Assembly: GCA_034658915.1 (NCBI GenBank)
Contig: JAYEGD010000290.1
Coordinates: forward strand, 1-26,112
Length of the DNA stretch: 26,112 nucleotides
Source: Campylobacterota bacterium
GTDB taxonomy: Bacteria; Campylobacterota; Campylobacteria; Campylobacterales; Sulfurimonadaceae
Direction of reading: 5' to 3'
Part shown: in pieces, positions 151-26,062 of the stretch
How the letters are laid out: each line of letters begins with the position of its first letter
Position numbering within the stretch: position 1 is the first letter of the stretch
The notes under the pieces: generated by a model
Database searches by the model: none
Told to the model about the DNA's origin: nothing
The model's input: the letters and a program-made list of their open reading frames with translations, nothing else
Program-made: the position numbers and the translations under genes

Positions 151-236
151 TCTCAAAAACGAAAGTTTTTGTAGCTTTAGGGGGTTGTAGGGACAAATTG
201 TCCATGCCACTAAAATGGACGCGTTCATTTTAGTGT
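151..236 (+). repeat. Copy 1 of an ~85-nt three-hairpin repeat element: HP1 caaaaac-gaaa-gtttttg, conserved linker tagctttagggggttg, HP2 tagggacaa-att-gtcc, HP3 cactaaaatg-gacgcgt-cattttagtg
   Basis: Direct alignment with copies at 8201-8288 and 25977-26062; all three stems show compensatory changes between copies; lies immediately 3' of the agcS stop on the minus strand. Confidence 0.8.
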
Positions 237-241
237 GCAAA

Positions 242-1693
242 TCAATGAAGCCTCTTGACCTCTTTGTCCAACTTTCCAGCTTTTAATTTTGCTAAATAGC
301 TATCTAACTCTTTTTTTACGCCTGAGCTTAATATAAAGAGTCCTAAAATGTTTGGCAGTGCCATGGCTAAAATCAGATAAAAACTAAAATCTACCATTAT
401 ATCTGTACTCACAATTGAAGCAATCATAGCTAAACCTAAAAAGATTAACTTGTAAATAAGTGAGTATTTTGAGCCAAAAAGATATACCCATGCACGCTCA
501 CCATAGTATGACCATGAAATCATCGTACTAAATGCAAAAAGCACAATAGATATTGACAAAATAGTAGGAAACCACCAAACAACACTACCATACGCAGCAG
601 CAGTTAATGCAGCTCCTTGTTTAGCAGCGATTAACTCTCCAAAACCATTAATAGGGTCATGGACACCTGTAATTATGATTACAAGTGCAGTCATTGTACA
701 AACAACAACAGTGTCAATAAAAGGCTCATACAGTGCAACCATACCTTGAGAAACTGGATGCTTTACTTTAGCAGGTGCATGAGCAACAGCAGATGAACCA
801 AGCCCAGCTTCACTAGAAAAAACTGCTCGCTGAAACCCTTGAACAATCACTCCAACAATTCCACCCTCAACTGCGTGTGGTGCAAATGCTTCACTAAAAA
901 TCAATCCAAACGCATGAGGAATCAGATCATAGTTTGAACCCAAAATCCATAATGATGCGCCAATGTATATTACAACCATTGATGGGACAACTTTTGCAGT
1001 CACGGTCGCAATTCTCTTTACGCCACCAATAATTACAGCACCCACAATAACTGCTAATCCCATTCCAAATACAAGTGGATTTGTCTCAAAAAAACTCACC
1101 TGTTGTTGTACTACACCTAACGCTTGAGATACTTGAAAGGTGTTTCCACCTCCAATTGCTCCACCAATCATTAAAAATGCGAATACAACTGCTAAAACTT
1201 TTCCAAATTTAGCGTAACCTTTTTGAGCCAAACCCTTTGAGAGGTACTCCATAGGACCACCCATAACAGAGCCATCTTTTAAAAACTCACGATGCTGCAG
1301 TGAGAGAGTAACCTCTGTAAACTTTAGACTCATACCTAAAAAACCAGCAATTATCATCCAAAATGTAGCCCCTGCCCCACCAATTGAGACAGCTAGTGCA
1401 ACACCCGCAATATTTCCAAGCCCAACAGTAGCAGACAGAGCAGTCGTAAGTGCAGCGAAAGGTTCAATTTCGCCTCTATCATCTTTAGTTCTGAAACGCC
1501 CTCTTATAACCTCATAACTATGCTTAAACATTCTAAGGTTAATAAACCTCATCAATATAGTTAAATAGAGACCTCCTAAAATTAGCCATGCTACTAAAAA
1601 TGGAACTTTCATCTCTCCACCAAAACCTAACAAAATGTCAAAAAACAAAATTGCACCTAAAAAATCATTAATACCTATAAACAGTTCATTCAT
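242..1693 (-). CDS. agcS: Sodium:alanine (alanine/glycine:cation) symporter, AGCS family
   Basis: 483-aa polytopic membrane protein; glycine-rich TM segments and overall architecture typical of the AGCS family (recognised from sequence, not a database search). Confidence 0.8.
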   Translation of the reverse strand: MNELFIGINDFLGAILFFDILLGFGGEMKVPFLVAWLILGGLYLTILMRFINLRMFKHSYEVIRGRFRTKDDRGEIEPFAALTTALSATVGLGNIAGVALAVSIGGAGATFWMIIAGFLGMSLKFTEVTLSLQHREFLKDGSVMGGPMEYLSKGLAQKGYAKFGKVLAVVFAFLMIGGAIGGGNTFQVSQALGVVQQQVSFFETNPLVFGMGLAVIVGAVIIGGVKRIATVTAKVVPSMVVIYIGASLWILGSNYDLIPHAFGLIFSEAFAPHAVEGGIVGVIVQGFQRAVFSSEAGLGSSAVAHAPAKVKHPVSQGMVALYEPFIDTVVVCTMTALVIIITGVHDPINGFGELIAAKQGAALTAAAYGSVVWWFPTILSISIVLFAFSTMISWSYYGERAWVYLFGSKYSLIYKLIFLGLAMIASIVSTDIMVDFSFYLILAMALPNILGLFILSSGVKKELDSYLAKLKAGKLDKEVKRLH

Positions 1694-1695
1694 AC

Positions 1696-2592
1696 TTACT
1701 CTCCTGGACCCTTAACTCTTTTGGCTTTTTTAAACAAAATATCACTCGGACTTCTCTTTAACTCTAATACCGTCTCATTAATGTTTAGCGTTAAAGAGCT
1801 CAACTCATCTAAAAGTTCATCAAGTTTATTGATAGAGTTTTGACTAATATCTTTAACACTGTAGTCACCTCTTTTAATGCTCTTCTCTAAAATCTTTGCA
1901 ACTTTTGAGACATTTTTAGACGCTTCGCTCATATCTTCAAATGTAACACTAGCATCTTTTTCAAACTTTTTTCCATCTTCTATTAGTGACTCAATACTAC
2001 TCATATTTGCTTTTAAAGTTGCAGTAATACTTTGAATATTCTCAATAGAAGCATCTATGTTTTCAATGTTTTTACTACTTAATAGCAAATTAATTTTACC
2101 TAATGAATCAATCAATTTATTAGAAATTTCAGATAGCACCTCATCAACTCTAACAAGTGTTGATGGAGTTGATTTTATGTAAGCAATTTTATCTTTACAT
2201 GTAATCAAAGTAGGCGACTTGTTAGAGCCACCATGAAGCTCAATAAATGCCAAACCAGTCATTCCATAAAATTTCAAACTCGCCAACGTATCTTCTTTAA
2301 TAGGCACAGACTCATTTACATGTAAAAGAAGTAAAACCTCTTTAGTGTTTGATGGATTAATCTGCATAGAATCTACACTACCAACATTTACACCCATGTA
2401 CTTAACACTAGCTTGTGGATTAAGACCCGAAACAGACTCACTCATAACAACATAGTAACTTTTTAAACCACTCTCGTCTCCATATTTACTCAACCAAAAA
2501 ATGAAGCCAATTAGTGCAAAACTAATTAAAACAAAAAATGTTCCAACCATCACATATGATGCTCTGCTATCCATTAATGCCTCTCTTTCCAT
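1696..2592 (-). CDS. mlaD: MlaD-like MCE-domain periplasmic substrate-binding component of an Mla-type ABC transporter
   Basis: N-terminal single TM helix followed by an MCE-like domain; in operon with MlaF- and MlaE-like genes; C-terminal coiled region. Confidence 0.7.
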   Translation of the reverse strand: MEREALMDSRASYVMVGTFFVLISFALIGFIFWLSKYGDESGLKSYYVVMSESVSGLNPQASVKYMGVNVGSVDSMQINPSNTKEVLLLLHVNESVPIKEDTLASLKFYGMTGLAFIELHGGSNKSPTLITCKDKIAYIKSTPSTLVRVDEVLSEISNKLIDSLGKINLLLSSKNIENIDASIENIQSITATLKANMSSIESLIEDGKKFEKDASVTFEDMSEASKNVSKVAKILEKSIKRGDYSVKDISQNSINKLDELLDELSSLTLNINETVLELKRSPSDILFKKAKRVKGPGE

Positions 2593-3319
2593 AAAAAAAA
2601 CTTTTTATTATAGGATGATTACACTTCATAACCTCTTGCAAAGTTCCTTGCGCAACCACTCTAGCCTCTGCTAAAAGTGCAAACCTATCTACACTATTTT
2701 TAATTGAGTCTAAGTCGTGAGTAATCATAACAATACTCAATCCCAGCAAATCTCTCAACTCTACAATAAGTTCATCAAACATATTAGCACTTATGGGGTC
2801 TAACCCTGATGTTGGCTCATCTAAAAAAAGAAGCTGAGGATCCATGCTTAAAGCTCTAGCTAACCCTGCTCTTTTTTTCATTCCACCACTCAACTGCGCT
2901 GGATGCATACTCTTTACATGTAGAGGAAGTCCTACTAAATCAAGTTTTGCATCTACAATTTTATCTATTAAAGAGTTCTCAATATTTGTGTACTCTTTTA
3001 GTGGGAGTGCAATATTTTGTGCAACATTTAAAGATGAATAGAGCGCACCTGATTGAAACAAAACTCCCCAATTTCTTCTTAAAAAATCGCCATCACTAAT
3101 GCTAATGTTTGAGAGTTTTTTACCTAAAATTGTAATGTTGCCACTGCTGGGTTTTTGCAACATTATCATCTCTCTTAGAAGTGTAGATTTACCACTTCCA
3201 CTTCCACCCAGCAGTGCATAAATTTCGCCTCTATTCACACTCAAGCTAAGACCATTATGAACTACATTTTCACCAAATGATGTAACAATATTTTGAACAT
3301 CAACTACAACTTCACTCAT
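2567..3319 (-). CDS. mlaF: ABC transporter ATP-binding protein (MlaF-like)
   Basis: Walker A GGSGSGKSTLLR, ABC signature LSGGMKKRAGLARAL, Walker B LLFLDEPTSGLD. Confidence 0.9.
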   Translation of the reverse strand: MSEVVVDVQNIVTSFGENVVHNGLSLSVNRGEIYALLGGSGSGKSTLLREMIMLQKPSSGNITILGKKLSNISISDGDFLRRNWGVLFQSGALYSSLNVAQNIALPLKEYTNIENSLIDKIVDAKLDLVGLPLHVKSMHPAQLSGGMKKRAGLARALSMDPQLLFLDEPTSGLDPISANMFDELIVELRDLLGLSIVMITHDLDSIKNSVDRFALLAEARVVAQGTLQEVMKCNHPIIKSFFYGKRGING

Positions 3320-4431
3320 AAATTCAACTTCGTTAAAATAACTGAAAAAATAGCGTCACACAAAATAACTAAAAAAATTGAATTAACAACGCTAATGGTA
3401 GTGTAACGCCCAATACTCTCACTACTAGAAGATACTTGAAATCCTCTAAAACAGCTAATGGAAGCAATTAGTAGTGCAAAAAATGGTGCTTTAATTAACC
3501 CAATGTAAAAGTGTCTAATATTTAAAACATCTTGAGTTCTATCTAAAAACTCACTAAAAGTGATGTTTAGTTGTGCCTTTGCAACAACCATACCGCCAAA
3601 TATTCCGACAATATCTGCAACAAAAATAAGCAACACCATAGCAACCATAAGTGCAATAATACGAGGAAGAACTAAAAATCTGTACGGATTAAACCCCATA
3701 GCTTTCATAGCATCAATCTCTTCAGTTAGCTTCATAACGCCCAACTGAGCTGTGTAAGCTGAACCACTTCTTCCAGCTACAACCACCGCAGTCATAAGAG
3801 GTGCCAACTCTCTTGTTAAAGAGATAGTTATCATATCTACAACAAACATATTGGCGCCTAGTTTCTCTAACTGAACTGCACCTTGAAATGTTGTTACAAC
3901 ACCAATTAAGAATGATGTAACAAAAATGATGGGAAGTGCTTTTACTCCTGCGTCTTGAATGTGTCTAAAAATGGAGTTAAATCTTATGGAGCTAGGGTGT
4001 AAAATGTAGTAGATGAGCGCAAAAACACTCTCCCCAGTAAAGTTTAAAAAAAGTTTTAACTCATCTTTAATACCTACAAGATATTTGCCAATATAGTAAA
4101 ATAGGCTCTCTTTTTTAGTTACCTTAACTTCACTATTTTGCACACTGCTTAGTAGCTTGTAAAGCTCTAAATGTCTCTTTGTAGCACCCTTTACATGTAG
4201 TGCAATATTTGCTTTTTTCAATCTCTCATAAAACTCAATAAAAAGTAAAATAGATGAAGAGTCAAACTCCTTTACATCTTCTACATGTAGAACTACCTCT
4301 TTGATGTTTTTGAGTGAAATCTTTTTCAACTCTTTAGAGATTTCTCCCACTCTTTGTACTTTACAATTATCACTAACACTAATGTTAAGTCTCTCATCTT
4401 CTACATGTAGAGTAATCAATTTTACTTCCAC
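3316..4431 (-). CDS. mlaE: MlaE-like ABC permease with an N-terminal ~110-aa STAS/MlaB-like extension
   Basis: C-terminal ~260 aa polytopic permease typical of MlaE; N-terminal soluble region with an internal LHVED duplication; start overlaps the upstream gene. Confidence 0.7.
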   Translation of the reverse strand: MEVKLITLHVEDERLNISVSDNCKVQRVGEISKELKKISLKNIKEVVLHVEDVKEFDSSSILLFIEFYERLKKANIALHVKGATKRHLELYKLLSSVQNSEVKVTKKESLFYYIGKYLVGIKDELKLFLNFTGESVFALIYYILHPSSIRFNSIFRHIQDAGVKALPIIFVTSFLIGVVTTFQGAVQLEKLGANMFVVDMITISLTRELAPLMTAVVVAGRSGSAYTAQLGVMKLTEEIDAMKAMGFNPYRFLVLPRIIALMVAMVLLIFVADIVGIFGGMVVAKAQLNITFSEFLDRTQDVLNIRHFYIGLIKAPFFALLIASISCFRGFQVSSSSESIGRYTTISVVNSIFLVILCDAIFSVILTKLNL

Positions 4432-5675
4432 ATAGAGTTATTAATAAGTAAATGATACGCCAAATTTTTAAAAAATTTTCCAAAAGAGACAGATGTAAGC
4501 TTCTCAGTATTAATAGTAAAATTCAGACAAACAACATCTTGACTCACACACTGCGCACTATATGGTACAGCTGAGTTAAAAACTGCATATGCATCTACAA
4601 CAAACTCATTTGCACCAATATATTTTTCAATATCACGGCTAAAAAGCCTCACTTCACCAGAGATAAGCAGCAAAAGATGAGAGAAGTTTGTATCTTCAAC
4701 AACAATAAAATCTCCAGATCTATATTTTTTAAAAATTGCACTCTCTATGGAGTTCTCTAAATTCTTCTCATTAATATCTAAAAAGAGTCTCAACTTTTTT
4801 TGTAAAATAACCTTTGTAGGAGTAGTTGAAGCTACACTACTTTGTGCTAAATGTCTATCTGATGCATGTTTAAAGCAGTACTCTTTAGCTCCATTAATTC
4901 TCATTTTAAGAGCGTCATCAACAACAATTTTTGTAACAATATTTTTTGAGTAATACTCTAAAAATTTACAAATATTAAGTTCACCTCTAACACCAGAACG
5001 CAATAAAAAGTTCTCTATTAATTTAGAAGATTTTGCACGAGAAAACATCTCTTTATTGTACTCATAAGCATAAGTGTCTAAAATTTGAAAAAACTTACTC
5101 TCAATAGAGGATTTAATCTCCTCAAAAATATCAAAAAAAGCCCCTTTATGGTAATCATAAAAGTTATTTACATATTTAACAAGCTCTTTAATTGATTTGT
5201 CTAAAATATCCCTTTTATCAAGCACGTCGGCGTGTCGTGTGCGAAGATATTTTATGTTCTCTTCATTAGGATTTTGAATTTTTTTGTAAAGAGCATCTTC
5301 TTGTTTGTTTAACTCAATAAGTTCAAACTCTTCAGCTTCAAGCAACTCCACTTTGTCCATAAAGCTCTCTTGCTTTTTTAAAAAACTGTTTTCATAAAGG
5401 GTAAGAGAGTTTTTTGAACGCATTTTAAAGTTAAAATATTTGTCATAAATAGAGTTTAACTTAACAAAGGAGTCCTCTAACTCTTGAGTAATAATTCGCT
5501 CATCAATATTACGAAACAGCCCAGTTGCAGAACTTATGAGGTCTTTAAAAATAATATAGTGAAAATCTTCATCTGCTGAAGCAATACGTTCAAAAGAGTA
5601 GCTATCACTTACTAAAATATCATCTTTAAAATAGGTTACTATACTCTGCTTGTACTGTGAGGTTAACTTTGTCAT
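4422..5675 (-). CDS. Cyclic-nucleotide-binding-domain protein (C-terminal cNMP-binding/Crp-like domain)
   Basis: C-terminal segment GDFIVVEDTNFSHLLLLISGEVRLFS resembles a cNMP-binding beta-roll. The track ORF extends to 5801 but those codons overlap the tRNA, so the start was moved to the first Met after the tRNA (MTKLTSQYK). Confidence 0.5.
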   Translation of the reverse strand: MTKLTSQYKQSIVTYFKDDILVSDSYSFERIASADEDFHYIIFKDLISSATGLFRNIDERIITQELEDSFVKLNSIYDKYFNFKMRSKNSLTLYENSFLKKQESFMDKVELLEAEEFELIELNKQEDALYKKIQNPNEENIKYLRTRHADVLDKRDILDKSIKELVKYVNNFYDYHKGAFFDIFEEIKSSIESKFFQILDTYAYEYNKEMFSRAKSSKLIENFLLRSGVRGELNICKFLEYYSKNIVTKIVVDDALKMRINGAKEYCFKHASDRHLAQSSVASTTPTKVILQKKLRLFLDINEKNLENSIESAIFKKYRSGDFIVVEDTNFSHLLLLISGEVRLFSRDIEKYIGANEFVVDAYAVFNSAVPYSAQCVSQDVVCLNFTINTEKLTSVSFGKFFKNLAYHLLINNSMWK

Positions 5676-5748
5676 AAACAGTATAGTACCAAAAAAAGTG
5701 TTAAAATATGAGGAGTTAAAGGATAAAGTATATAAAAAAGTAGTATGA

Positions 5749-5823
5749 TGGTGCTCAATACTGGACTTGAACCAGTGACTTTTTCCTTGTCGAGGAAACA
5801 CTCTACCACTGAGTTAATCGAGC
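5749..5823 (-). tRNA. tRNA-Val (anticodon GAC), 75 nt including encoded CCA
   Basis: Manual cloverleaf: acceptor GCTCGAT/ATTGAGC (one G-U), D-stem ACTC/GAGT with AGTGGTA loop, anticodon stem TTTCC/GGAAA with loop TCGACAA, T-arm ACTGG-TTCAAGT-CCAGT, 3' ACCA. Position 33 is C rather than the usual U. Confidence 0.7.
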
Positions 5824-5844
5824 TGCTTTTTAAAAGAGCTGGAA

Positions 5845-5876
5845 TTATAGCAAAAGAACTATAAAACCATCTTTAT
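5845..5876 (+). repeat. Left copy of a perfect 32-bp direct repeat ttatagcaaaagaactataaaaccatctttat (candidate attL)
   Basis: Identical to 9909-9940; 21 nt upstream of the tRNA-Val 5' end. Confidence 0.9.
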
Positions 5877-5928
5877 ATCCACTTTTATGATATTTGACAT
5901 ACTTTTTTATCTCCTTGAAATTTTATTA

Positions 5929-5934
5929 TATAAT
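5929..5934 (+). promoter_or_regulatory. Candidate sigma70-type -10 box (tataat) for the R-M operon
   Basis: TATAAT about 35 nt upstream of the first ATG of the 5970 ORF, in an AT-rich periodic-T region typical of epsilonproteobacterial promoters; TTGACA at 5894-5899 is too far away to serve as its -35. Confidence 0.3.
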
Positions 5935-5969
5935 TCAAAAAATATTCAGATAAATATTCATACTAATAA

Positions 5970-6962
5970 ATGGAACATATAATGAAAAAAGAATCTACTC
6001 AAACAAAGGATGGGAAAGCATTTGAATATTCTATTCTAAAAGAATTTAAAGAAAAACTAGGAAGTTCAACGACAGTAGAGGTTTTAGAAAACAATGCATT
6101 ATTAACAGCACAAAAACACTTTAATTCTTTTAAAAAAATAGAACAAGCAGAATTTCTACTTTATGCAAGTTTTGCAGTTAACTTTTTAATTGATATAGAA
6201 CCAAGATTATCTAACAGCTTTGATGAAGATGATATTTTACAATTAGAAATATTAACATATGACAAGGGACAAGATGGTGATGTGAGAGATGTTGTTGCTA
6301 TAAGATTATTACAAAAATGGGAAATAGGGATTTCAGCTAAAAATAATCATAAAGCTATAAAACACTCAAGACTTTCTAATAAAATAGATTTTGGAGAAAA
6401 ATGGCTTGGAATAAAATCATCAACACAATATTTCGATGAAATAAGACCAATATTTAACTCTCTTGAAAAAATGAGAACAGAAAGTAATAAAACTAAAACT
6501 TGGAAATCTTTAGGCGATTATCATCATACAGTATATATTCCTATATTAGAAGCCTTTAAAACAGAATTATTAAGAATATATAATACAAACCCTTCTCAAG
6601 TTGCTTCTACTTTAGTAGAGTATCTAATAGGAACTAAAGATTTTTATAAAGTAATTAAAAGTAGAAACAATATTGAAATTCAAGCATATAATTTGCACGG
6701 CACTTTAAATTTACCTTTTAAAGATATTAATCCTAAATTTAATACACCAAAAGTTAATTTACCAACTGAAATTACCAACATATCGTATAAAAAAGACACA
6801 CTAACAACTTTAATCGTTGAATTAAATAACGATTGGACACTATCTTTTCGAATTCATAATGCAAGTTCTAGAATTGAACCATCATTAAAATTTGATATAA
6901 ATTTACTAAAAGCACCTAATTCATTATTTACCAATAAACTTTCTATTGGAGGAGAAGAGTAA
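5970..6962 (+). CDS. Putative Type II restriction endonuclease, cognate partner of the downstream m5C methyltransferase
   Basis: 330-aa ORF whose stop overlaps the methyltransferase ATG by 1 nt (gagtaATGaat), with a GGAGGA ribosome-binding site for the downstream gene inside its 3' end; no recognisable family motifs beyond a possible D..E.K-like patch (DVRDVVAI...EIGISAK); assignment rests on position. Confidence 0.5.
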   Translation: MEHIMKKESTQTKDGKAFEYSILKEFKEKLGSSTTVEVLENNALLTAQKHFNSFKKIEQAEFLLYASFAVNFLIDIEPRLSNSFDEDDILQLEILTYDKGQDGDVRDVVAIRLLQKWEIGISAKNNHKAIKHSRLSNKIDFGEKWLGIKSSTQYFDEIRPIFNSLEKMRTESNKTKTWKSLGDYHHTVYIPILEAFKTELLRIYNTNPSQVASTLVEYLIGTKDFYKVIKSRNNIEIQAYNLHGTLNLPFKDINPKFNTPKVNLPTEITNISYKKDTLTTLIVELNNDWTLSFRIHNASSRIEPSLKFDINLLKAPNSLFTNKLSIGGEE

Positions 6963-8047
6963 TGAATATAATATCTCTGTTTTCTGGTGCTGGAGGATTG
7001 GATTTAGGTTTTGAAAAAGCAGGTTTTAAAACTATTTGGGCGAATGAATATGACAAAGAAATTTGGCAAACATTTGAAAAAAATTTTCCTGATACCATTT
7101 TAGATAGAAGAAGTATATCAAAAATAGCATCAGATGAAATACCAGAAACATTAGGACTTATCGGTGGACCTCCATGTCAAAGTTGGAGTGAAGCAGGAAA
7201 ATCAAGAGGGATAGAAGACCATAGGGGACAACTATTTTTTGAGTTTATAAGAGTTTTAAGAGATAAAAAACCTCTATTTTTCTTAGCTGAAAATGTTTCA
7301 GGAATGTTAGCTCCAAGACATGAAGATGCATTGGAAAATATAAAAAACCACTTTATCGATAGTGGATACACTTTATCGTTTAAACTCATGAATGCTCATG
7401 ATTATAAAGTGCCTCAAGATAGAAAAAGGATATTTTTTATTGGATTTAGAAATGACCTAAATATCACTTTTAAATTTCCAAAAGAGTTTGAAAAAAAACG
7501 ATTTTTAAAAGATGTTATTTCTGATTTAAAAGATAATGTACTTCCTGCTAAAGAAAAAAATTATACAAATGCTGATAAGTGCAAAATAGAAAATCATGAA
7601 TTTATGATTGGTGGATTTTCATCAATGTTTATGTCTAGAAATCGAGTTAGAGGTTGGGATGAACCATCATTTACAATTCAAGCGGGTGGAAGACATGCAC
7701 CACTACATCCACAAGCACCTAAGATGCAACTTGTAGAGCAAAATAAAAGAATATTTGTTCCACATAGTGAACATCTGTATAGAAGACTTAGTGTTAGAGA
7801 GTGTGCTAGAATACAAACATTCCCAGATAGTCATAAATTCTATTATAAAAATGTGACTGCTGGATATAAAATGGTTGGTAATGCTGTACCTCCTAACCTC
7901 GCATACTACTTAGCAAAAAAAATAATTGAAGACTTACAAAGTATTCATCCTAACAAAACAGTGGAACTCACAAATATACCTATCGCTGGTAATTCTAATT
8001 ATTACGAAAATAGCTATATTCCTGAAATTCAAGCTGTGTCAGGCTAG
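6962..8047 (+). CDS. DNA (cytosine-5)-methyltransferase, M.HaeIII-like (predicted GGCC specificity)
   Basis: Motif I FSGAGGLDLGF, motif IV GGPPCQSWSEAG, motif VI ENV, C-terminal GNAVPPNLA. From memory the sequence is near-collinear with M.HaeIII (MNLISLFSGAGGLDLGF...GGPPCQSWSEGG...FMSRNRVR.W.EP.FT.QA.GR...LHPQAP...HLYRRL.VRECAR.Q.FPD...GYKM.GNAVP.NLAY). Confidence 0.9.
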   Translation: MNIISLFSGAGGLDLGFEKAGFKTIWANEYDKEIWQTFEKNFPDTILDRRSISKIASDEIPETLGLIGGPPCQSWSEAGKSRGIEDHRGQLFFEFIRVLRDKKPLFFLAENVSGMLAPRHEDALENIKNHFIDSGYTLSFKLMNAHDYKVPQDRKRIFFIGFRNDLNITFKFPKEFEKKRFLKDVISDLKDNVLPAKEKNYTNADKCKIENHEFMIGGFSSMFMSRNRVRGWDEPSFTIQAGGRHAPLHPQAPKMQLVEQNKRIFVPHSEHLYRRLSVRECARIQTFPDSHKFYYKNVTAGYKMVGNAVPPNLAYYLAKKIIEDLQSIHPNKTVELTNIPIAGNSNYYENSYIPEIQAVSG

Positions 8048-8200
8048 AAGGTACATTTGTAGTTCAACACAACCGTTATGTTCACACCAAGAAAATCAAT
8101 GAGAGAATCATTTAAAAGTAAAATTATAGAAGTTTGCAATAAGAAAATTGAAACTAGAGGTTCAAATGTTTCATAAAAAGCATATAGAAGAACATTTTAT

Positions 8201-8288
8201 CTCTCGAAAACATTGTTTTCGTAGCTTTAAGGGGTGGTAGGGACAAAATTGTCCCTACTACTAAAACGGACGGAGGCGTTTTAGTGCA
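8201..8288 (+). repeat. Copy 2 of the three-hairpin repeat element: HP1 cgaaaac-att-gttttcg, HP2 gtagggacaa-aa-ttgtccctac (perfect), HP3 actaaaacg-gacggagg-cgttttagt
   Basis: Aligns with copies 1 and 3; aaatg/cattt in other copies becomes aaacg/cgttt here (compensatory); sits between the convergent 3' ends of the methyltransferase and the HExxH gene. Confidence 0.8.
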
Positions 8289-8308
8289 TAACATCAGTTA
8301 TTAAATCT

Positions 8309-9259
8309 CTAAGCTTGATTTACGTTAGCATTATGTAAAGCATCATCAAGCTCTTGATCAGAAATCTTTTTCCATGTACTTAAGTCAATTCCAAGTGTAA
8401 CATCTCTTCTTAAATATTTAGCATTCTCTTTTTCTTGGTGTTCTAGTAACTCTAGCACATCCTTGATATCAATCATAGCACCATCATTTCTTGGCATAAC
8501 TCCATAATCTGCTGGGTCGCTAAAGTCTCCTGTTAGGGCTCTGATTAATGTATCACTCTCTACAATATTGAAGTCATTAATAGCCTCATTTATATCAACT
8601 TTTATTCCCATCTCATCGAGTAATTTCAGTTGAGTTCTGAATGCTACATCTTCCCACTCTACCGCTCTTTGAGCGTTTAATAAAGACAAACCAGAATAGA
8701 TTTTTTTATCATTTTTGTTGTATGGATTCTTAATATCAAAAGATAAAGCACCAAACCTCTTGCTATCTCCATATCGTGACTGCATAAGAGTTTCTGTGAG
8801 CGCATGAGCTAGTTCATGAACTCCTCTCCATACTTTTGTATATTCTACATCATTAAATGCACCATGAGCAGAGTAAGGGTCATAAACAAAAATATTACCT
8901 TTTGCATAGCCATTCTTTTTAAGGCTTCTACTAGATGGCTGTTTAATTATTGTCTTCTCTCCAATTTTTCTACCAATATTGTCTGGATTCGTAGAAATAT
9001 ATTCAATATTGTATCCATACTTTTTAGCTAATTCATCTATGTAGTTTGGATTTTCAACCAGCTTACTTAATACGATAGACTTTAGCATATCAGCACTATT
9101 TTTGTTTGAGAACATCTCAAAAGTTCTACTAAATATAGCTTTGCACAAAGTATCAAAAGATTTTTTATCTCCCTGAGATGCCTTTTGTACAAGTTCAGCA
9201 GGCGCAGCAGATGTATTTATATGATGGCTAGTTGCATTAGTGTCGTTTGCTTTATTCAT
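8309..9259 (-). CDS. HExxH zinc-metalloprotease-like protein
   Basis: 316 aa with a single HELAH motif at residues 148-152 (WRGVHELAHALTE); GGAG ribosome-binding site; family not assignable from memory. Confidence 0.5.
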   Translation of the reverse strand: MNKANDTNATSHHINTSAAPAELVQKASQGDKKSFDTLCKAIFSRTFEMFSNKNSADMLKSIVLSKLVENPNYIDELAKKYGYNIEYISTNPDNIGRKIGEKTIIKQPSSRSLKKNGYAKGNIFVYDPYSAHGAFNDVEYTKVWRGVHELAHALTETLMQSRYGDSKRFGALSFDIKNPYNKNDKKIYSGLSLLNAQRAVEWEDVAFRTQLKLLDEMGIKVDINEAINDFNIVESDTLIRALTGDFSDPADYGVMPRNDGAMIDIKDVLELLEHQEKENAKYLRRDVTLGIDLSTWKKISDQELDDALHNANVNQA

Positions 9260-9275
9260 ATTGGCTCCAAAAGTG

Positions 9276-9704
9276 TTAACTTATATCTTCTATTTTACTA
9301 CTTTTAAGTAAAACTTTTTTAGTTTGACATTCGATATATTCTAAAAAATGGTAACTGTTGTAAAAAATACTATACTGTTCATATTTCATACCAAGACTTA
9401 GTGCATCATTTTTACTGATTCTATAAACAATAAAGCTATCTTCTTTGTGCTCATCACACTTTCCAACTGTACCCTCATATTCATATTTCAAAGCCTTTAA
9501 ATCATCTTCTAACTTATGGTTGAGTATCTTGTTTTCTGCCTCTGAAAGTTCTCTATTCATAGGGTTCCATGCTGTAATAATAGCAAATGGTATATCTAAA
9601 GATAGACTCTCTTCTAACTCTTCAATACCAACCCAAATTTCTTCTGATTTATTCTTAAATAGAAATTTATTGCGTCTGTAAATATCTATGAGTTGCACAG
9701 TCAT
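9276..9704 (-). CDS. Hypothetical 142-aa protein (possibly DUF3293-like; motif FAIITAWNP)
   Basis: ORF 16 nt upstream of and co-oriented with the HExxH gene; domain guess is from memory only and weak. Confidence 0.4.
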   Translation of the reverse strand: MTVQLIDIYRRNKFLFKNKSEEIWVGIEELEESLSLDIPFAIITAWNPMNRELSEAENKILNHKLEDDLKALKYEYEGTVGKCDEHKEDSFIVYRISKNDALSLGMKYEQYSIFYNSYHFLEYIECQTKKVLLKSSKIEDIS

Positions 9705-9768
9705 TTAATACTCAACCACAACACAAAGCTTTTTTATAAACATCCATATCTTCTCTTTTTCCTACTGC

Positions 9769-9774
9769 TATAAT
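9769..9774 (+). promoter_or_regulatory. Candidate -10 box (tataat) for a plus-strand small transcript
   Basis: Perfect TATAAT about 60 nt upstream of an intrinsic terminator on the same strand; no protein-coding ORF between them. Confidence 0.3.
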
Positions 9775-9830
9775 GTAAATCATAACCTCGTCCTCAATAG
9801 TTTCATTCTATGGAGCGGTAAAAAGCTTTT

Positions 9831-9868
9831 AAAGGTCAAAGGATTAATTACCCTTTGACCTTTTTTTT
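9831..9868 (+). terminator. Rho-independent terminator: stem aaaggtcaaagg / cctttgaccttt, loop attaattac, followed by T8
   Basis: 9-12 bp inverted repeat followed by eight T on the plus strand; could also act weakly for the minus-strand ybeD operon. Confidence 0.6.
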
Positions 9869-9908
9869 GCCCTCCTAGAATATTTTAACCCATTTCCCAA
9901 CATCATTG

Positions 9909-9940
9909 TTATAGCAAAAGAACTATAAAACCATCTTTAT
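9909..9940 (+). repeat. Right copy of the 32-bp direct repeat (candidate attR), overlapping the last four codons and stop of the ybeD-like gene
   Basis: Identical to 5845-5876; its reverse complement reads aag atg gtt tta tag = K M V L stop of the 9923..10192 ORF. Confidence 0.9.
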
Positions 9941-11741: not shown

Positions 11742-11753
11742 AACTTTATCCTC

Positions 11754-12281: not shown

Positions 12282-12962
12282 TTAATCTTTTCTCGAATTT
12301 TTTTCCGCTATTCCACTCATATTAAATCTTCTTGAAAGCTCTTGTTTTACTCTATCTGGAGAGATGTTTTTGTAGCCTAGAGCAACTAACATATGGTATG
12401 TTAAATCTGCTGCTTCATAAATCATCTCATCTTCATCACTATCTTTTAGAGCAAAACAGAACTCACCAGCCTCTTCAATAACTTTTTTCAAAATTGTGTT
12501 TTCACCTTTAGCAAAAAGTTTTGCAGTCCAAGATGAGTCTGGGTCTGCATTTTTACGCTCTAAAATCGTATGATAGAGTGTGTCAATAACGCCATACATA
12601 GCGTCAGTTTCAACCTCAACACTACTACATGTAGAGCCACTCTCAAGCTCTGTAAAAAAGCATGAACGCCTACCTGTATGACATGCAACACCATCTTGTG
12701 CAACTTTAATTAAAAGAGTGTCATTATCACAATCAATATTGAAAGACTTAATGTGTTGTAGATGGTTAGAGCTTTCACCCTTTTTCCAAATTCTCTGTTT
12801 TGAACGTGAAAAGTAGTGAGCTAGTTTTGTCTCTAAAGATAGCGTTAGAGCCTCTTTGTTCATGTAAGCCATCATTAAAACTTCAGAGTTTTCATAATCT
12901 TGCACAATAACAGGGAGAAGCTCGCACTTCTCCCAATCGACTCTATTTAAAATCTCTTCCAT
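12282..12962 (-). CDS. hisIE: Bifunctional phosphoribosyl-AMP cyclohydrolase / phosphoribosyl-ATP pyrophosphatase HisIE
   Basis: N-terminal HisI region (LPVIVQD...CHTGRRSCFF) and C-terminal HisE MazG-like region (LEEAGE...EAADLLYH-like). Confidence 0.85.
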   Translation of the reverse strand: MEEILNRVDWEKCELLPVIVQDYENSEVLMMAYMNKEALTLSLETKLAHYFSRSKQRIWKKGESSNHLQHIKSFNIDCDNDTLLIKVAQDGVACHTGRRSCFFTELESGSTCSSVEVETDAMYGVIDTLYHTILERKNADPDSSWTAKLFAKGENTILKKVIEEAGEFCFALKDSDEDEMIYEAADLTYHMLVALGYKNISPDRVKQELSRRFNMSGIAEKNSRKD

Positions 12963-14080
12963 TATTTAGAACTAACTCTTTTTTGAGCATCTTTTGTATC
13001 TACCCAAATGTTTGGAGTAGATCCACCAGGTGTTAAGAATATTTTTGCATCTTTATTAACTTTTAGAGCTTCATTAAACTTACCTTGAACATGAATTTGC
13101 TCTAAGTGTAGAAGTTTTTCAGTTAAAGATTTTGAAATTAAAAGGTTCGCTTTTGCTTGTGCATCTGCTTCAATAGTAATTGCATCTGCTGCACCTGTTG
13201 CTGCAATTTTAACTGCATTTGCTTTACCTTGCGCATCAGCTTCACGTTTTAGAGCCTCTTGTTTTGCACGTTGAACCTCTTGTTCTGCACGTTGAACCTC
13301 TTGTTTTGCAATTTGAACACGCTCTATTTGATCTTTTACTTTTGTAGGTAAAATTATTTCACGAAGTTGCACAGATTGTAAAATGGCAGGAGAGTTCTTT
13401 TGAGACTCAACACTTTGACTAATTCCATCATCAATCTGCTTTGCAATTGTGTTACGCATTGTAGGAAGTGACTCTGCATCATACTTACCAACAACATTTC
13501 TTACAACATCACGAACAACAGGACTAATGATTTTGTCTTCCCAGCTAAAGCCCCAATTTGAGATTGTTTGAGCTGCAAATTGTGAGTTAAGACGGTACTG
13601 AACAGTCAGCTCAATAGAGACAGGAAGACCACGTTTATCAAGAACTGTAATTGCAGGTTTTGCATTAATTCCATCACTTCCACCCATAGTAGAGCGCTCA
13701 ATTTTATTTACATAGTTAATAATACGTACTTTAGTATCTACTAAATATACTTTTTGAATTATTGGTACAATAAAGTGAAGACCAGGAAGTAAAGTATGCT
13801 CTTGGTACTTACCATTAGTTGCCAAAATACCACGCTCACCCTCTGTAATAATTACAAATGGTTTAGAGATGACTAAAAATAGAATTATTGCTAAAACAAA
13901 GTAGATAATTCCAGCTTTTCCACCACCAAAGTTAAAGTCTATCTTAGGCATATTAGGAGGAGTGAAGTTTCCACCACCACCGTTTCCACCGTTTCCACCG
14001 TTTCCACCACTTCCACCGCCAGAGCCACTTTTACTCTCTTTTTTCTTCTTGTTAAAATAATCATTCATATCTGTTGCCAA
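12962..14080 (-). CDS. SPFH/band-7 (prohibitin-like) membrane protein with a Gly/Asn-rich N-terminus
   Basis: N-terminal GGGSGGNGGNGGNGGGG, one TM helix, SPFH-like core, C-terminal coiled region containing the tandem repeat QEVQRAEQEVQRAKQEA. Confidence 0.7.
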   Translation of the reverse strand: MATDMNDYFNKKKKESKSGSGGGSGGNGGNGGNGGGGNFTPPNMPKIDFNFGGGKAGIIYFVLAIILFLVISKPFVIITEGERGILATNGKYQEHTLLPGLHFIVPIIQKVYLVDTKVRIINYVNKIERSTMGGSDGINAKPAITVLDKRGLPVSIELTVQYRLNSQFAAQTISNWGFSWEDKIISPVVRDVVRNVVGKYDAESLPTMRNTIAKQIDDGISQSVESQKNSPAILQSVQLREIILPTKVKDQIERVQIAKQEVQRAEQEVQRAKQEALKREADAQGKANAVKIAATGAADAITIEADAQAKANLLISKSLTEKLLHLEQIHVQGKFNEALKVNKDAKIFLTPGGSTPNIWVDTKDAQKRVSSK

Positions 14081-19581: not shown

Positions 19582-19652
19582 AATAGAGTACTTTTATTGT
19601 ATCATTGTGTATTAAATTTACAAATATACAAATATTCAACAAAGGAAGAGAA

Positions 19653-20345: not shown

Positions 20346-20354
20346 GAGAGTAAT

Positions 20355-20374
20355 ATTGCGCGCTTTAGCGCAAT
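20355..20374. terminator. GC-rich hairpin attgcgc-gcttta-gcgcaat between convergent genes (bidirectional terminator candidate)
   Basis: 7-bp GC-rich inverted repeat overlapping the cysQ-like stop codon; no long T-run, so weak. Confidence 0.35.
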
Positions 20375-21132: not shown

Positions 21133-22939
21133 TATACACCTCTTTAATTTTTAATGCATCACTCATATTCAGCACTTCAGCAATCTCTTCAACACTCAAT
21201 TTTTTTAGTGCTTCAAATGTTCCAAAATGAAGTAGAAGTTTTTTCACTTTTGCTTCGCTTACACCTTTTACATGTAGAAGTTTACTTTGCTTGTCTAATT
21301 TTAGTTTACTCTTTTTATGAAACCCTATTGCACTTCTATGCGCTTCATCTCTTAAAAGTTGAACAAACTGTAACCTTTTGTCAGAGGGTTGCAGTTTAAA
21401 TGAGTCGTTAATAGTATGAATTTCATCATTAGCCCTACCCTTTGCACGGTGTGATTTTGCATCTATCTTCTCTTTAGAAATAGCAATTACATCGAGGTTA
21501 ACACCACAACTCTCAATAATGCTTTGAGCTAGTAGAAGTAGAGTTCTACCACCATCTAAAACCCATAAATCAGGTGGTGGATTTTTTTCAAAACTCTCAA
21601 CTCTTCTTGTTAATGTCTCTCTCATTTGAGCATACTCATCTAACGCTTTTAAGTGGTAAAGTCTGTATGACTCTTTTTCAAACCTATTATCATCATACAC
21701 AACCATAGCTCCTACAGGTGCAGTTCCACCCATATGTGAGTTGTCAAATGTCTCTACTCTTAATGGTACTCTTTGTAGTGAACACAACTCTTTTAGTGCT
21801 TCGCCAACCTCTTGTGATTGCTCTTTTTTCTTAATTAATAGCTCTTTTGCATTACTAAAAGCCAATTGTGTAAGCTCTCTTTTAACACCCTTTTGAGGAG
21901 AAATTATTTTTACTTTTTTTCCAAAAAGGTTGGTTAAATGTTCTGAAATAACACCCTTTTCATCAAAATTATCATAACACAAAACATCTACTACAATGGG
22001 TGGTTTTTCATTTCCATAAAAGTTTACAATTGAGCGTGAGTATAGCTCATTAACATCTGCTCCATAGAGCAGATTTATATTAGTTGATGAACTTGAAATA
22101 ATCTTACCATCGCGCATAAACATCTGCATCATAACCGCTTTTTTCTCACTATGTGCTAGTGCAAAAATATCATAATTCTCACTACTCATCACATCAATAC
22201 TTGACTTAATTTCACTCTTTTGAATTCTTATAATTCTATCTCTTAGTGTTGCAGCCTCTTCAAAACGCTCATTTTGTGCATAAAAGAGCATCTTTTGCTC
22301 AATATCTTTAAGAAGTGTTTTTTTATTTTGAATATAGCTTACTCCTTTTGCAACAATTTTTTTGTACTCTTCAACGCTAATGCTACCCTCACATGGAGCT
22401 AAACACTTCTCGATTTGTTGATATAAACAAGCTTTCTTCCCTTTTAGACAACTCTTTTTTTGTACTAATTGACATAGCTCATAAATGCTGTCGTAAATAT
22501 CTCTAGCACCAATTGAGTATGGTCCAAAATATTTAATATCTCTACCTTTAATTACTCTTCTTGTTATCTCAAATCTTGGATAATCTTCTGACTCATCTAT
22601 GTAGATATAGGGGTAGGTTTTGTCATCACGAAGTAAAATATTGTATTTTGGATTCAACTGCTTAATAAGTGAGTTCTCTAAAATTAGCGCATCATGCTCA
22701 CTAGATACTACAATATACTCTAATGAGACTACTTCATCTAACATCTTTAAAATACGCAAAGATTGATTAGGGTTTGGCTTTAAAGTCGGAGTAAATCGCC
22801 AATAGCTTTTTACTCTTTTTGACAACTCCTTAGCTTTTCCAACATACAACAACTTGCCATTTTTGTCTAAATATTGGTAAATCCCTGCACTTTGTGGAAG
22901 AGATTTAATTACATGTAATAACTCATTAATCTCTTGCAT
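21119..22939 (-). CDS. uvrC: Excinuclease ABC subunit C
   Basis: N-terminal GIY-YIG ([28 protein letters not shown]), UvrBC-interaction region, C-terminal endonuclease and HhH regions; 606 aa. Confidence 0.9.
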
Positions 22940-23330
22940 TAAGTGCTGACTTTAAAACTTTTGCTAACGCTTTTTTACTTTGTGGATTTGCTTTATTAAG
23001 CGCTCTATCAAACTTTAATACTAATGTCTTATCTACATTTTTATGGCTAAACAGGCTTGTAATTAGACCCTCATACTTTTTAAATCCATTAGGTGGAATT
23101 TCAACATGATGCTCAATAATGTAGTTTACTGCATCATTAAGTTTTGACCTTGAGGAGTGTGAAGATTTAAAAATTTTTTCAACTTTTTCAAAACTCATCC
23201 CTGAGTCACTATTTTGCGCAGCTCTTTTTGCTCTTGATGATGCAATTACAACATACAATAGTACTAATATTGGTAAAACAAGAAGAGTAATTGCAACTGC
23301 TATAAGTAAAATCGTTATATCTATATTCAT
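22926..23330 (-). CDS. Small membrane protein (one N-terminal TM helix), hypothetical
   Basis: 134 aa, hydrophobic N-terminus; 4-nt overlap with the upstream kinase gene. Confidence 0.4.
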
Positions 23331-25333
23331 ACTCTTTTACGCTCTCTTACCTCTTTTTTTAGTGCAATCGATGTACTAACACCACCCTTAATATTTCTCA
23401 TCTTTAGTTTACCTAAGTGGTGTTCATTAACAATTATTCGTGACATATAAAGACCAAGCCCAGTACCATTTTTTTCCTCTTTTGTGGAGAAGTATGGGTC
23501 AAAAACTTTATCTATAATTGCATCTGGTACTCCACCACCATTGTCTGATATATCGATATAAACATACTCATTATCTTCATATGTTCCTATATTAATAACA
23601 GGATTTAATATTTTTCTTTCATGAAAATTATCTTGTGAATTTTTTAAGATATTTAGCACAACTTGCATCATCTCACTGGAGTACATGTAGATCTCTATTT
23701 GAGTCTGATAATCTTTTTTCACCTCAATTAAACTACTCTCAAAAAGGCTCTGCACAATTTTAAATGACTTCTCAATAGGTTCTATAATTGTAACTAATCC
23801 TCTTCTCTTATCGCTTTTGTAGAAGTCTCTAAAATCATCAATTGTTCGTGTTAATGTTTTTACCATATAATCAATTTCAGATGTTTTTGATAAGATGAAC
23901 TCTTCATAATTTTTAGCACCACTTTTGCTATTTAAATCAAACCTTTTAAGTGTAGTTTTTACCTCAACATCTATTACGGTAGATGCAATTGCTGCAAGAG
24001 GTTGTCTCCATTGATGCGCAATCATACTTATCATCTCGCCCATTTGAGCTAGTCTAGCACTTTGTGCTATCATTAAATCTTTTTTTTCTAACTCTGCTAA
24101 TGAATCTTGAACCTTTTTTTCTAGGTTTTGATTTAGCAGTTTAAGCTCATTTGCAGTTGCAGAAGTGATGTTTAAGAGTGTATCAACTGTGCTGTTTTCA
24201 CTGCTTAATTTCCTCTCAATATTGAGTGAACTTCTTGAGTCAATTTTACTATTTTCACTAAGTGCTAATAGCGTTATAGAGTTGTTTAAGATATCTGAAC
24301 GACTCTTATGAGTAAAAAATTCTCCATAAGTAAAAAAACCACTAATATTTTCATTATCGCTAAAGTGTTCAAACTCATACTCTGCCATATTTTTCAAAAA
24401 ATGTCTTCTAGCCATGCATGAATAGACAAAGATTGTTTCACTATTTTTTTGAGCAATATCTTCAGCTAGTATATTTGCACTATCTAAAATTCTATCTACA
24501 CTACCTACAGAGAAACTAACTTTGGATCCTTGTGGCATATCACCTGCAAAAACTAATGAGCCATCGCTACCTTTATTAAGCATAACTCTAGCAATTTTAT
24601 AGCCATCTTTGTTGATTACAAGAGGAAACTCTGTACCCAAAAGAGGAAGATTAGCTGTAATTTCACTGCCTAAAAACTTGTTAAACAGCTCCAAAGGATT
24701 TTTATTATTAATAGAATATACAATATTATCAACCGACCTTGTAATAGTAAACTCTACACCAATAGCTTTCCAAGAGAGAAGATTTTTTTGGTATATGCTA
24801 AGTGTTTTTGATACAAAAGCAACACCAACAATTCCAGATTTTAAAACACTACTGTCGTGAATTATATAGCTCTCACTAAATGCACCATTGTCTCCAGCAA
24901 CTCCACCACTTATTATTAACTTTTTATGCTCATCTTTAATTGCAGAGAGTATCTTACTTATTCTAGTATTAAACCCACAAGCATACATAATTAAGAGTTT
25001 TGAAGATTTAGGTATTTTTTTATTAATTGCAACATCTGAATCATCAAATTCTGAATGATATAGATGAAGTTTTGTACTCTCAAAATAGCTAATAGATATT
25101 ACAATCTTATTAGTAGAGACTATTTTTTCATTAATTTCACCATCAGTAGTTGCACCTATAATTTTTGCCTCTGGCAAGCTCTTTTTTATTAAAGAGGATA
25201 TATGCTCAAGCAAATCAACCAATAATAGACCAGAAAAAATTTGCACTAAAACATCTGTGTGAAGCTCTTTTGAGTTCTCAATAAAATCTATTAAATCTCT
25301 GTCTGATTTATAATATGTTGTTTTTGTAGTCAC
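23327..25333 (-). CDS. Cytoplasmic sensor histidine kinase with an N-terminal FIST-like sensory region
   Basis: C-terminal H-box HQWRQPL and HATPase motifs DNGGGVP and GTGLGLYMSRII; a coiled linker precedes the H-box; N-terminal ~400 aa with no TM helix resembles FIST N/C domains (from memory, moderate). Confidence 0.65.
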   Translation of the reverse strand: MTTKTTYYKSDRDLIDFIENSKELHTDVLVQIFSGLLLVDLLEHISSLIKKSLPEAKIIGATTDGEINEKIVSTNKIVISISYFESTKLHLYHSEFDDSDVAINKKIPKSSKLLIMYACGFNTRISKILSAIKDEHKKLIISGGVAGDNGAFSESYIIHDSSVLKSGIVGVAFVSKTLSIYQKNLLSWKAIGVEFTITRSVDNIVYSINNKNPLELFNKFLGSEITANLPLLGTEFPLVINKDGYKIARVMLNKGSDGSLVFAGDMPQGSKVSFSVGSVDRILDSANILAEDIAQKNSETIFVYSCMARRHFLKNMAEYEFEHFSDNENISGFFTYGEFFTHKSRSDILNNSITLLALSENSKIDSRSSLNIERKLSSENSTVDTLLNITSATANELKLLNQNLEKKVQDSLAELEKKDLMIAQSARLAQMGEMISMIAHQWRQPLAAIASTVIDVEVKTTLKRFDLNSKSGAKNYEEFILSKTSEIDYMVKTLTRTIDDFRDFYKSDKRRGLVTIIEPIEKSFKIVQSLFESSLIEVKKDYQTQIEIYMYSSEMMQVVLNILKNSQDNFHERKILNPVINIGTYEDNEYVYIDISDNGGGVPDAIIDKVFDPYFSTKEEKNGTGLGLYMSRIIVNEHHLGKLKMRNIKGGVSTSIALKKEVRERKRV

Positions 25334-25872
25334 TATTTATCATACTTTGTTAGGTTATTGTATCTAATAGTATCGGCTACAATTTTAGTGTATTTAGCCC
25401 CTAACTCTGAGTATTTATTAAGCTCTTTCACCAATAGATAAACATTATTAGTTTTCATCTGTTTCTCTTTGAATTTTTTGTAAGCTTTTGCTCTACTAAT
25501 TGTTAAATAGTAGCTACTAATAGAGTCTTTAATAGTTGCGTACTTTCTTACCCAAATACTCTTACCATTACGCTTTTGAGATGCTGCAATTTTTGGAAGT
25601 TTTGAACTCCCTGCCCACATACCAAAAGCGTTATTAGCCTCTTTAAAAAAACGTGAAGTTCCCCAGCCACTCTCAATAGCAGCTTGTGCAACTGCAATAC
25701 TAATTGGATGAGGCTTAATAGCTTTTAGCAACTCCTCATCAGTAGATACTCGATATTTTTTTTTTAATAATGCAATTAACTGAGTACTTTTTCCATAAGC
25801 CATATCACTTTTAAGCCTTAAATATTGATACTGTAAAGAGTTGTAAGTTTGTGTAATTTGAGGAACCATCAA
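25333..25872 (-). CDS. Glucosaminidase-domain protein (FlgJ C-terminal / Bax-like peptidoglycan hydrolase)
   Basis: Motif AQAAIESGWGTSRFFKEANNAFGMW typical of the mannosyl-glycoprotein endo-beta-N-acetylglucosaminidase domain. Confidence 0.65.
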   Translation of the reverse strand: MMVPQITQTYNSLQYQYLRLKSDMAYGKSTQLIALLKKKYRVSTDEELLKAIKPHPISIAVAQAAIESGWGTSRFFKEANNAFGMWAGSSKLPKIAASQKRNGKSIWVRKYATIKDSISSYYLTISRAKAYKKFKEKQMKTNNVYLLVKELNKYSELGAKYTKIVADTIRYNNLTKYDK

Positions 25873-25976
25873 TGCAAAAAATCTATCTTTTTTAGTTTGA
25901 GTTGCATTTGATAAAGTAGATGTAATAAGTATAATAATTAAATATCTTAAAATAATTACTCCTTAAAATCTTTTAA

Positions 25977-26062
25977 TTCTCGAAAACAGAGTTTTCGCAG
26001 CTTTAGGGGGTTGTAGGGACACTTGTGTCCCTGCCACCAAAATGGACGTGTTCATTTTGGTG
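25977..26062 (+). repeat. Copy 3 of the three-hairpin repeat element: HP1 cgaaaac-aga-gttttcg, linker cagctttagggggttg, HP2 tagggacac-ttg-tgtccctg, HP3 caccaaaatg-gacgtgt-cattttggtg
   Basis: Aligns with copies 1 and 2 with compensatory substitutions in HP2 and HP3. Confidence 0.8.

Follow-up and report, generated by a model that had tools for sequence, protein, structure and literature searches.

A stretch of 26,112 nt from a Campylobacterota bacterium of the Sulfurimonadaceae (contig JAYEGD010000290.1, assembly GCA_034658915.1), referred to in its full length as the window, carries three copies of a short repeat composed largely of hairpins. The repeat is a previously undescribed structured miniature inverted-repeat transposable element (MITE), common in Sulfurimonadaceae and related Campylobacterales, and it is the internal fold of this element, rather than its ends, that bears its clearest signature of selection.

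Ends, length forms and target-site duplications

The complete element, which was delimited by extending the flanks of copies outside the window, is non-coding and 116-143 bp long, the unit of ~90 nt seen in the window being its right-hand part. It runs from 5'-CTGACCTTACGCAC to GTGCGTAACATCAG-3', which form 14-bp terminal inverted repeats (in short form CTGA...TTACGCAC; CTGAnnTTACGCAC). The interior comprises, in order, an optional left hairpin, a pyrimidine tract, a first hairpin (HP1), the linker AGCUUUAGGGGG, a second hairpin (HP2, GUAGGGAC/GUCCCUGC) and a third (HP3). Copies of the long form (~142 bp) have the extra left hairpin, built from the left repeat with a loop and an internal GTGCGTAA, and then a spacer ahead of HP1. 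Those of the medium form (~116 bp) have HP1 immediately next to the left repeat, and their ends are perfectly complementary 14-mers, as in the locus L086. Intermediate forms start 57 nt and 36 nt ahead of the linker.

Among the 61 copies with an identifiable right end, 16 have the exact 7-mer that follows ...TCAG repeated directly before 5'-CTGAC, and these 7-bp target-site duplications (TSDs) were found in all four length classes. When control 7-mers were taken 15-35 nt further on, 2 of 183 trials gave a match, at unrelated positions. The duplication is occasionally 8 bp long (L003). TSDs are AT-rich (mostly A and T by inspection), variable in sequence and often include a stop codon (GAAGTAA, TGAATAA, ATATTAA, TTAGAAT, ATTTTTA); the target is often the end of a gene, with its last codons and its stop, and throughout the family neighbouring genes frequently have their stop codons within the termini or right next to them. 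Terminal inverted repeats together with a TSD of fixed length indicate a DNA transposon and, where coding capacity is lacking, a MITE, which is very probably what this family is. A MITE had been one of the options offered when the window copies were originally predicted to be dispersed and mobile, and the terminal inverted repeats and TSDs of complete copies bear that option out.

At one locus (L016:1083-1237, with orthologues in L046 and L087), the left gene has its stop codon in the TAA of the TSD GAAGTAA, that of the convergent right gene comes immediately after the second TSD copy, and the whole intergenic region now consists of the 142-bp MITE. Judging from this arrangement, the locus would have consisted of two genes with abutting stop codons before insertion.

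Secondary structure and covariation

The pairing of the hairpins is under selection. A covariance model was built from 97 copies and used to align 112 copies, in which 93.7% of pair cells hold standard pairs, compared with 76.3% in column shuffles. None of 500 shuffles came up to the value observed, and pairing falls to 41-50% if the 3' partners are shifted by 1-3 columns. Changes on both sides of a pair occur at 8 of 8 HP1 pairs and at 11 of 12 HP3 pairs. HP2 and the linker are nearly invariant among copies found by the sequence pattern, and copies found by the model alone keep AGCTTTAGGGGG and carry the pairing-preserving HP2 variants GCAAGGGAC/GTCCCTGC and GCAAAGGAC/GTCCTTGC. The structure-preserving selection proposed in the original prediction is thus upheld, with HP1 and HP3 covarying across the 112 copies and HP2 in the model-only copies. 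RNAalifold also pairs the pyrimidine tract with a G-run in the linker, forming a helix that encloses HP1; on the large alignment this helix is 92% paired and changes only between U and C, which is consistent with pairing and short of proof.

The + strand, as oriented in the window, is the folding strand. Stem cells hold 266 G.U against 49 A.C combinations, a ratio that becomes 94 to 49 once two fixed wobble positions are disregarded, and the + strand of a full-length copy folds as RNA with -54 kcal/mol (z = -8.2), compared with -45.6 kcal/mol (z = -5.1) for its complement. Copies occupying one orthologous site in three species (L016, L046 and L087) agree with this, as every stem substitution keeps + strand pairing while loops and spacer vary freely: one pair in HP0 is C-G, U.G and U-A in the three species respectively, HP3 is AAGACG/CGUCUU in one version and AAAACG/CGUUUU in another, and five changes give wobbles while none gives A.C. 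Pairing is therefore probably selected on the + strand after insertion as well, and gene conversion between copies may be an alternative source of this orthologous pattern.

The three copies in the window

The window copies were read directly from the sequence, on the + strand. Their conserved linker, AGCTTTAGGGGGTTGTAGGGACA, occurs three times on this strand with no more than two mismatches, where shuffled sequence gives an expectation of zero, and all three copies share the same order of parts: a pyrimidine tract (TCTC), HP1, the linker TAGCTTTAGGGGGTT, HP2 (GTAGGGAC-loop-GTCCCTGC), HP3 and a GTGCGTAACATCAG-like tail. With the covariance model, the window yields three full copies and no more, at 149-261, 8200-8312 and 25976-26088 (86-90 bits, E ~1e-17); no other match exceeds 18 bits. 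Sequence and model scores confirm the original description of three same-strand copies with a common linker and three helices, and also its HP1, HP2 and HP3 stems as read from the sequence, apart from one overlooked mismatch in HP2 of copy 1. The extent of ~85 nt given there has to be revised, as the units run a few bases further right (to 244, 8297 and ~26072) and belong to a longer element.

Copy 1 (151-244, + strand; 86.7 bits) is a left-truncated form, with the pyrimidine tract at 151-154, HP1 at 154-171, the linker TAGCTTTAGGGGGTT at 172-186, HP2 at 187-207, HP3 at 208-235 and a degenerate right terminus reaching 244, whose TCA at 242-244 reads in the complement as TGA, the stop codon of the minus-strand gene agcS (242-1693, from the list of open reading frames, ORFs). 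The mismatch in its HP2 is A204, which gives GTCCA in place of GTCCC, and its + strand folds as RNA with -28.4 kcal/mol (z = -3.3). Copy 2 (8200-8297, + strand; 86.5 bits) lies inside an island bounded by direct repeats and comprises the pyrimidine tract at 8200-8205, HP1 at 8205-8221, the linker at 8222-8236, HP2 at 8237-8258, in which the usual T.G is replaced by T-A, and HP3 at 8260-8285 (fold z = -4.4). It is the only window copy to keep a right terminal repeat, the well-preserved GTGCATAACATCAG at 8284-8297, which was matched by the pattern for the right terminal repeat at 8297. Copy 3 (25976-26072, end approximate, + strand; 89.5 bits) has its pyrimidine tract at 25977-25981, HP1 at 25981-25997, linker at 25998-26012, HP2 at 26013-26033, HP3 at 26034-26061 and a degenerate right terminus (fold z = -4.1), and by eye keeps a spacer-like stretch ahead of HP1. 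A partial tandem unit (26077-26112, + strand), consisting of HP2 and the 5' arm of HP3, follows it and ends with the window; 35 of its 36 bases are the same as those of 26011-26046, 66 nt upstream, and similar module duplications occur in L019, L079, L080 and L107.

The stems of the three copies differ in matched ways. In HP1, copy 1 has CAAAAAC/GTTTTTG where copies 2 and 3 have CGAAAAC/GTTTTCG, the loop-proximal pairs of HP2 are ..ACAA/TTGT.. or ..ACAC/GTGT.., and HP3 exists in three versions, each mutually compensated. That all copies share one orientation, as originally reported, holds true; that they sit directly 3' of minus-strand genes fails for copy 3, which lies upstream of a minus-strand gene with a glucosaminidase domain (25333-25872, Pfam).

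When the window copies were searched with a profile that covers left terminus, left hairpin and spacer, no match was significant, the best for copy 2 having E = 1.2 at 8188-8206. Because they have lost the left terminal repeat, the window copies are probably left-truncated or decayed relics that are no longer mobile. The surrounding DNA has 33% G+C and encodes housekeeping genes, and a Pfam search of the window found no transposase, integrase, reverse transcriptase or cas gene, in keeping with the earlier remark that no transposase, reverse transcriptase or cas gene lies nearby.

Distribution of the family

Scanning one genome per species with the pattern GCTTTANGGGGNNGTAGGGAC, which covers the linker and HP2, gave at least 112 loci in about 60 species-level genomes, so that copies with structure-preserving variation extend well beyond the three from which the element was first described. 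Nearly all of these loci belong to Sulfurimonas, Sulfuricurvum, Sulfurimonadaceae or otherwise-labelled Campylobacterales metagenome-assembled genomes (MAGs), and the outlying labels among the listed loci are Sulfurovum (1), Arcobacter (1), a Sulfurospirillum MAG (2) and a 'Pseudomonadota' MAG (1). Several MAGs hold 5-10 or more loci, which are lower bounds. In the nearest relatives of the window region, AgcS is 83% and 76% identical and synteny differs.

Many matches are located at contig ends. The one public contig from what is essentially the window's own organism (Logan contig SRR26901924_257684, L113) is 99.8% identical to the window over 3 kb and ends, at its position 3003, inside HP3/HP2 of copy 1. 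Contigs that stop inside the element show the usual behaviour of a dispersed repeat, which fragments short-read assemblies of the window organism.

A BLAST search with a full-length copy found one copy, unannotated, in the plasmid collection, on pSULKU01 of S. kujiense, and no match in the phage collection; one contig in IMG/VR carries the linker pattern. The family is unannotated in RefSeq. With Rfam 15 at gathering thresholds, only tRNA-Val passes in the whole window, and in E-value mode the best match to a full-length copy scores 19 bits against a threshold of 39.8 (E = 0.13). No description of the family was found in searches of the literature on MITE, REP or hairpin repeats in Sulfurimonas or Epsilonproteobacteria, and these Rfam and literature searches support the earlier statement that the element matches no named family.

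Decay derivatives and nested repeats

Both the ends and the core of the element can be lost independently. A solo hairpin of 39 nt, made up of the two terminal repeats only, lies between convergent genes at L096:5149-5187, and internal deletions at L106:3093-3188 and in L035 (2248 region, minus strand) have removed HP2 and HP3. Truncated forms and forms with small insertions nested in HP1 or HP3 are common among the copies, and tandem sub-units also occur. The solo hairpin, internal deletions, nested insertions and tandem modules are the products expected of MITE decay.

A second, smaller repeat is nested in HP1 or HP3 in L011, L018, L051, L056, L087, L104 and L109 (for example L109:5098-5250). 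It contains ...TTCTAAAGAAAC..., to which some copies add a CGCTTCGCGAGCG-type hairpin and ...TTGTTTTG, and it could represent either a further mini-element or a duplication of HP1 that has recurred.

Candidate mobilising transposase

The MITE would be moved in trans by a DDE transposase making 7-bp staggered cuts. Such a mobiliser is suggested by the ends and the duplication, and on these sequence features it is most likely an IS4-family enzyme of the ISPepr1 type, the transposases of that family being DDE enzymes with a YREK motif. Insertion sequences of the ISPepr1 subgroup have 5'-CT ends, the end consensus YT-AA-YTT---A and direct repeats of 7-8 bp, and they prefer targets rich in A and T (De Palmenaer et al. 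2008, PMC2266710). The MITE shares the CT ends, the 7-bp TSD (8 in L003) and the AT-rich targets, and in our own comparison its ends CTGACCTTACGCA and CTGATGTTACGCA both match the published consensus at 6 of 8 positions. When one gap is allowed, they also resemble the outside end of Tn5, which is CTGACTCTTATACAC (PMC3347997). Unlike ISPepr1 elements, the MITE has no transposase gene, is ~140 bp long instead of 1.5 kb, and has a conserved core of several hairpins, which has not been described for these insertion sequences; no autonomous partner was found.

A tblastn search with Tn5 transposase gave no match in any of the fetched DNA, and the same query against all plasmids gave no Campylobacterota among the top organism names or the 40 matches listed. 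Segments of 700-2600 bp with CTGA/CTGT-type inverted ends in the fetched loci were chance or non-insertion-sequence pairs only. On pSULKU01, two gene-less stretches (L119:18602-21758 and 32104-35206, corresponding to 68.6-71.8 and 82.1-85.2 kb of the record) contain long ORFs that by eye resemble Tn3-family transposases; these are probably pseudogenes omitted from the plasmid gene table and are unrelated to the MITE.

Role of the fold and alternative explanations

The element is most economically viewed as a selfish MITE whose fold would act in the single-stranded state of the + strand, and we infer that the fold has a role either as RNA or as single-stranded DNA. In read-through transcripts, it could serve as a stabilising, processing or insulating structure, as has been proposed for REP, ERIC, BOX and Correia repeats, and its maintenance would let copies persist at orthologous sites. 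This RNA-level role is put forward tentatively, as a possibility that falls short of even chances, and single-stranded DNA would be a less likely acting form than RNA. Replication orientation, approximated by GC skew, shows a bias too weak to use, with the G-rich strand being the folding one in 61 of 102 loci (61:41, p ~0.06).

Rather less likely is that the transposon is a vehicle for a functional single-stranded module, an RNA or single-stranded DNA ligand that acts wherever it has landed. The module would consist, at the same low likelihood, of the helix between pyrimidine tract and G-run, HP1, an AGCUUUA bulge, HP2 and HP3, and might either determine processing or stability through binding of a protein specific to Campylobacterota, or regulate the element's own IS4-type transposase in the manner of RNA-OUT. 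If so, host-level selection would keep copies after they lose mobility, which would explain why pairing is preserved during evolution at orthologous sites and in the left-truncated relics of the window.

It is improbable that the copies are instead structured non-coding RNA genes or cis-regulatory RNA modules (small RNAs or 3' or 5' untranslated regions, UTRs), with spread being incidental and the inverted repeats forming a closing helix. Such modules would account for the strong covariation, the + strand wobble asymmetry, the pairing-preserving changes at orthologous sites, the very low folding z-scores and the conservation of a single-stranded linker, which extends to copies found without the pattern, and many copies do stop 10-25 nt ahead of a ribosome-binding site and start codon. 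However, their termini are flanked by exact 7-bp duplications, truncated, deleted and nested forms are common, and Rfam offers no match. The orientation of flanking genes (--26, -+21, +-21 and ++21; n = 89) is as for random insertion into intergenic DNA, and in 26 of the 89 copies both neighbours lie on the opposite strand. Neither a sigma-70-like promoter consensus nor, on either strand, an intrinsic-terminator-like site was found in copies 1 and 2; HP3 is followed by GCGUAACAUCAG and not by a U-tract, and a -10-like candidate hexamer at the right end is by inspection not conserved between subfamilies. A 3'UTR module of minus-strand genes, one of the earlier suggestions, is contradicted by the random orientation over ~90 copies and falls because the folding + strand of the window is antisense to agcS and to the gene of a 316-aa protein.

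The original prediction had favoured REP/RAYT elements, IS200/IS605-derived PATEs and attC sites. A REP or BIME mobilised by RAYT, or an IS200/IS605-derived PATE, would present single-stranded DNA hairpins for recognition by a Y1 HUH transposase. REP sequences carry the signature GTAG followed by a palindrome, and HP2 is likewise GTAG followed by a short palindrome, in a hairpin that is intergenic, multi-copy and strand-specific; the weak tendency of the folding strand to be the G-rich one (61 of 102 loci, p ~0.06) would also suit this explanation. PATEs of IS200/IS605 have subterminal hairpins and insert 3' of a fixed tetra- or pentanucleotide. To our knowledge, neither REP/RAYT systems nor these PATEs produce TSDs or possess terminal inverted repeats, and attC sites entail no target duplication. 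The present element, in contrast, has TSDs of variable sequence and terminal inverted repeats, is a composite of four helices over 116-143 bp where a REP is a palindrome of 20-40 nt, and is accompanied by no RAYT gene that was seen and by no Y1 transposase in the window (Pfam), so that this origin is very improbable. The TSDs at complete copies exclude REP/RAYT, IS200/IS605 PATEs and attC alike.

There is next to no chance that the copies are integron attC-like sites, which form same-orientation arrays at cassette ends next to intI, or that a CRISPR-like array with a 36-nt repeat and 66-nt spacing starts at the end of the window, since, although the copies are imperfect palindromes beside gene ends and the units at 26011 and 26077, 66 nt apart, are identical at 35 of 36 positions, the copies are single, scattered and randomly oriented, TSDs are present, tandem partial units elsewhere are module duplications, and the window has no integrase or cas gene. 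A CRISPR reading of the 26011/26077 pair was also rejected because the 3' arm of HP3, which is conserved, falls within the supposed spacer at 26047-26076.

Small structured intergenic repeats of other bacteria, namely Correia in Neisseria, ERIC/IRU in Enterobacteria and BOX and RUP in Streptococcus pneumoniae, are close parallels to the MITE in general design. Like it, they are non-coding repeats of 100-150 bp with inverted ends, size variants that arise by internal deletion and modular or tandem sub-units, which lie hard against gene ends, fold stably if transcribed and persist at orthologous sites. The MITE has no sequence relationship to them and a different host clade, Campylobacterota; its TSD is 7 bp long, whereas that of Correia and RUP is TA, and its fold is asymmetric, with three to four separate hairpins and a linker in place of one long end-to-end hairpin.

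Several points weigh against the interpretation of the family as a MITE mobilised by an IS4-type enzyme and selected for its fold. All three window copies lack a recognisable left terminal repeat as well as a 7-mer TSD on their flanks, and their membership of the family would accordingly follow from core homology, without transposon hallmarks of their own. No clean pair of filled and empty sites was present among the fetched loci, the relatives being too diverged: orthologous regions with and without the element (such as L083 and L022) are ~75-80% identical, and their intergenic DNA is unalignable. No cognate transposase was found in the window, in 0.9 Mb of fetched loci or in the first 100 kb of pSULKU01, and the IS4/ISPepr1 assignment, drawn only from ends, TSD length and target preference, would be a lead and not a proof. 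Transposition of this kind does not account for strand-specific selection on structure, because DDE cut-and-paste needs no internal hairpins, and a simple role as cis-regulatory RNA fits poorly with an orientation that is random with respect to genes. As to the alignment, nearly all copies were ascertained by the linker/HP2 pattern, which makes the invariance of those columns partly a matter of construction, and fitting by the model to the + strand structure gives the pairing and wobble counts a small bias toward the + strand.

Other features of the window

Exact 32-bp direct repeats (TTATAGCAAAAGAACTATAAAACCATCTTTAT) at 5845-5876 and 9909-9940 bracket a 4-kb insert (5877-9908), the left repeat lying 21 nt from tRNA-Val(GAC) at 5749-5823. 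The insert encodes a HaeIII-type restriction endonuclease (5970-6962), a C5 cytosine methyltransferase (6962-8047), the 316-aa protein, which has no Pfam match, and a DUF3293 protein, and it contains copy 2 of the MITE. No integrase was found within 5877-9908. The insert has the appearance of a restriction-modification island whose insertion duplicated a 32-bp site. Elsewhere, an ORF with an SPFH/Band 7 domain (12962-14080, minus strand) has in-frame tandem repeats at 13255-13318 (3 x 21 nt) and 13977-14018 (4.7 x 9 nt), which are low-complexity segments of the protein.

Significance

These results delimit an abundant and hitherto unannotated repeat in Sulfurimonas, Sulfuricurvum and their relatives, which are key sulfur oxidisers and denitrifiers in sediments, vents and aquifers. 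Metagenome assemblies break at the element, many contigs stopping within it, and the covariance model can be used to mask or map it. As it supplies or overlaps the stop codons of its neighbours and often fills the gap between convergent genes, annotation as well as operon and terminator predictions should take it into account. What the fold of this MITE does is a question that can be put to the test in hosts amenable to cultivation, S. kujiense and S. denitrificans among them.

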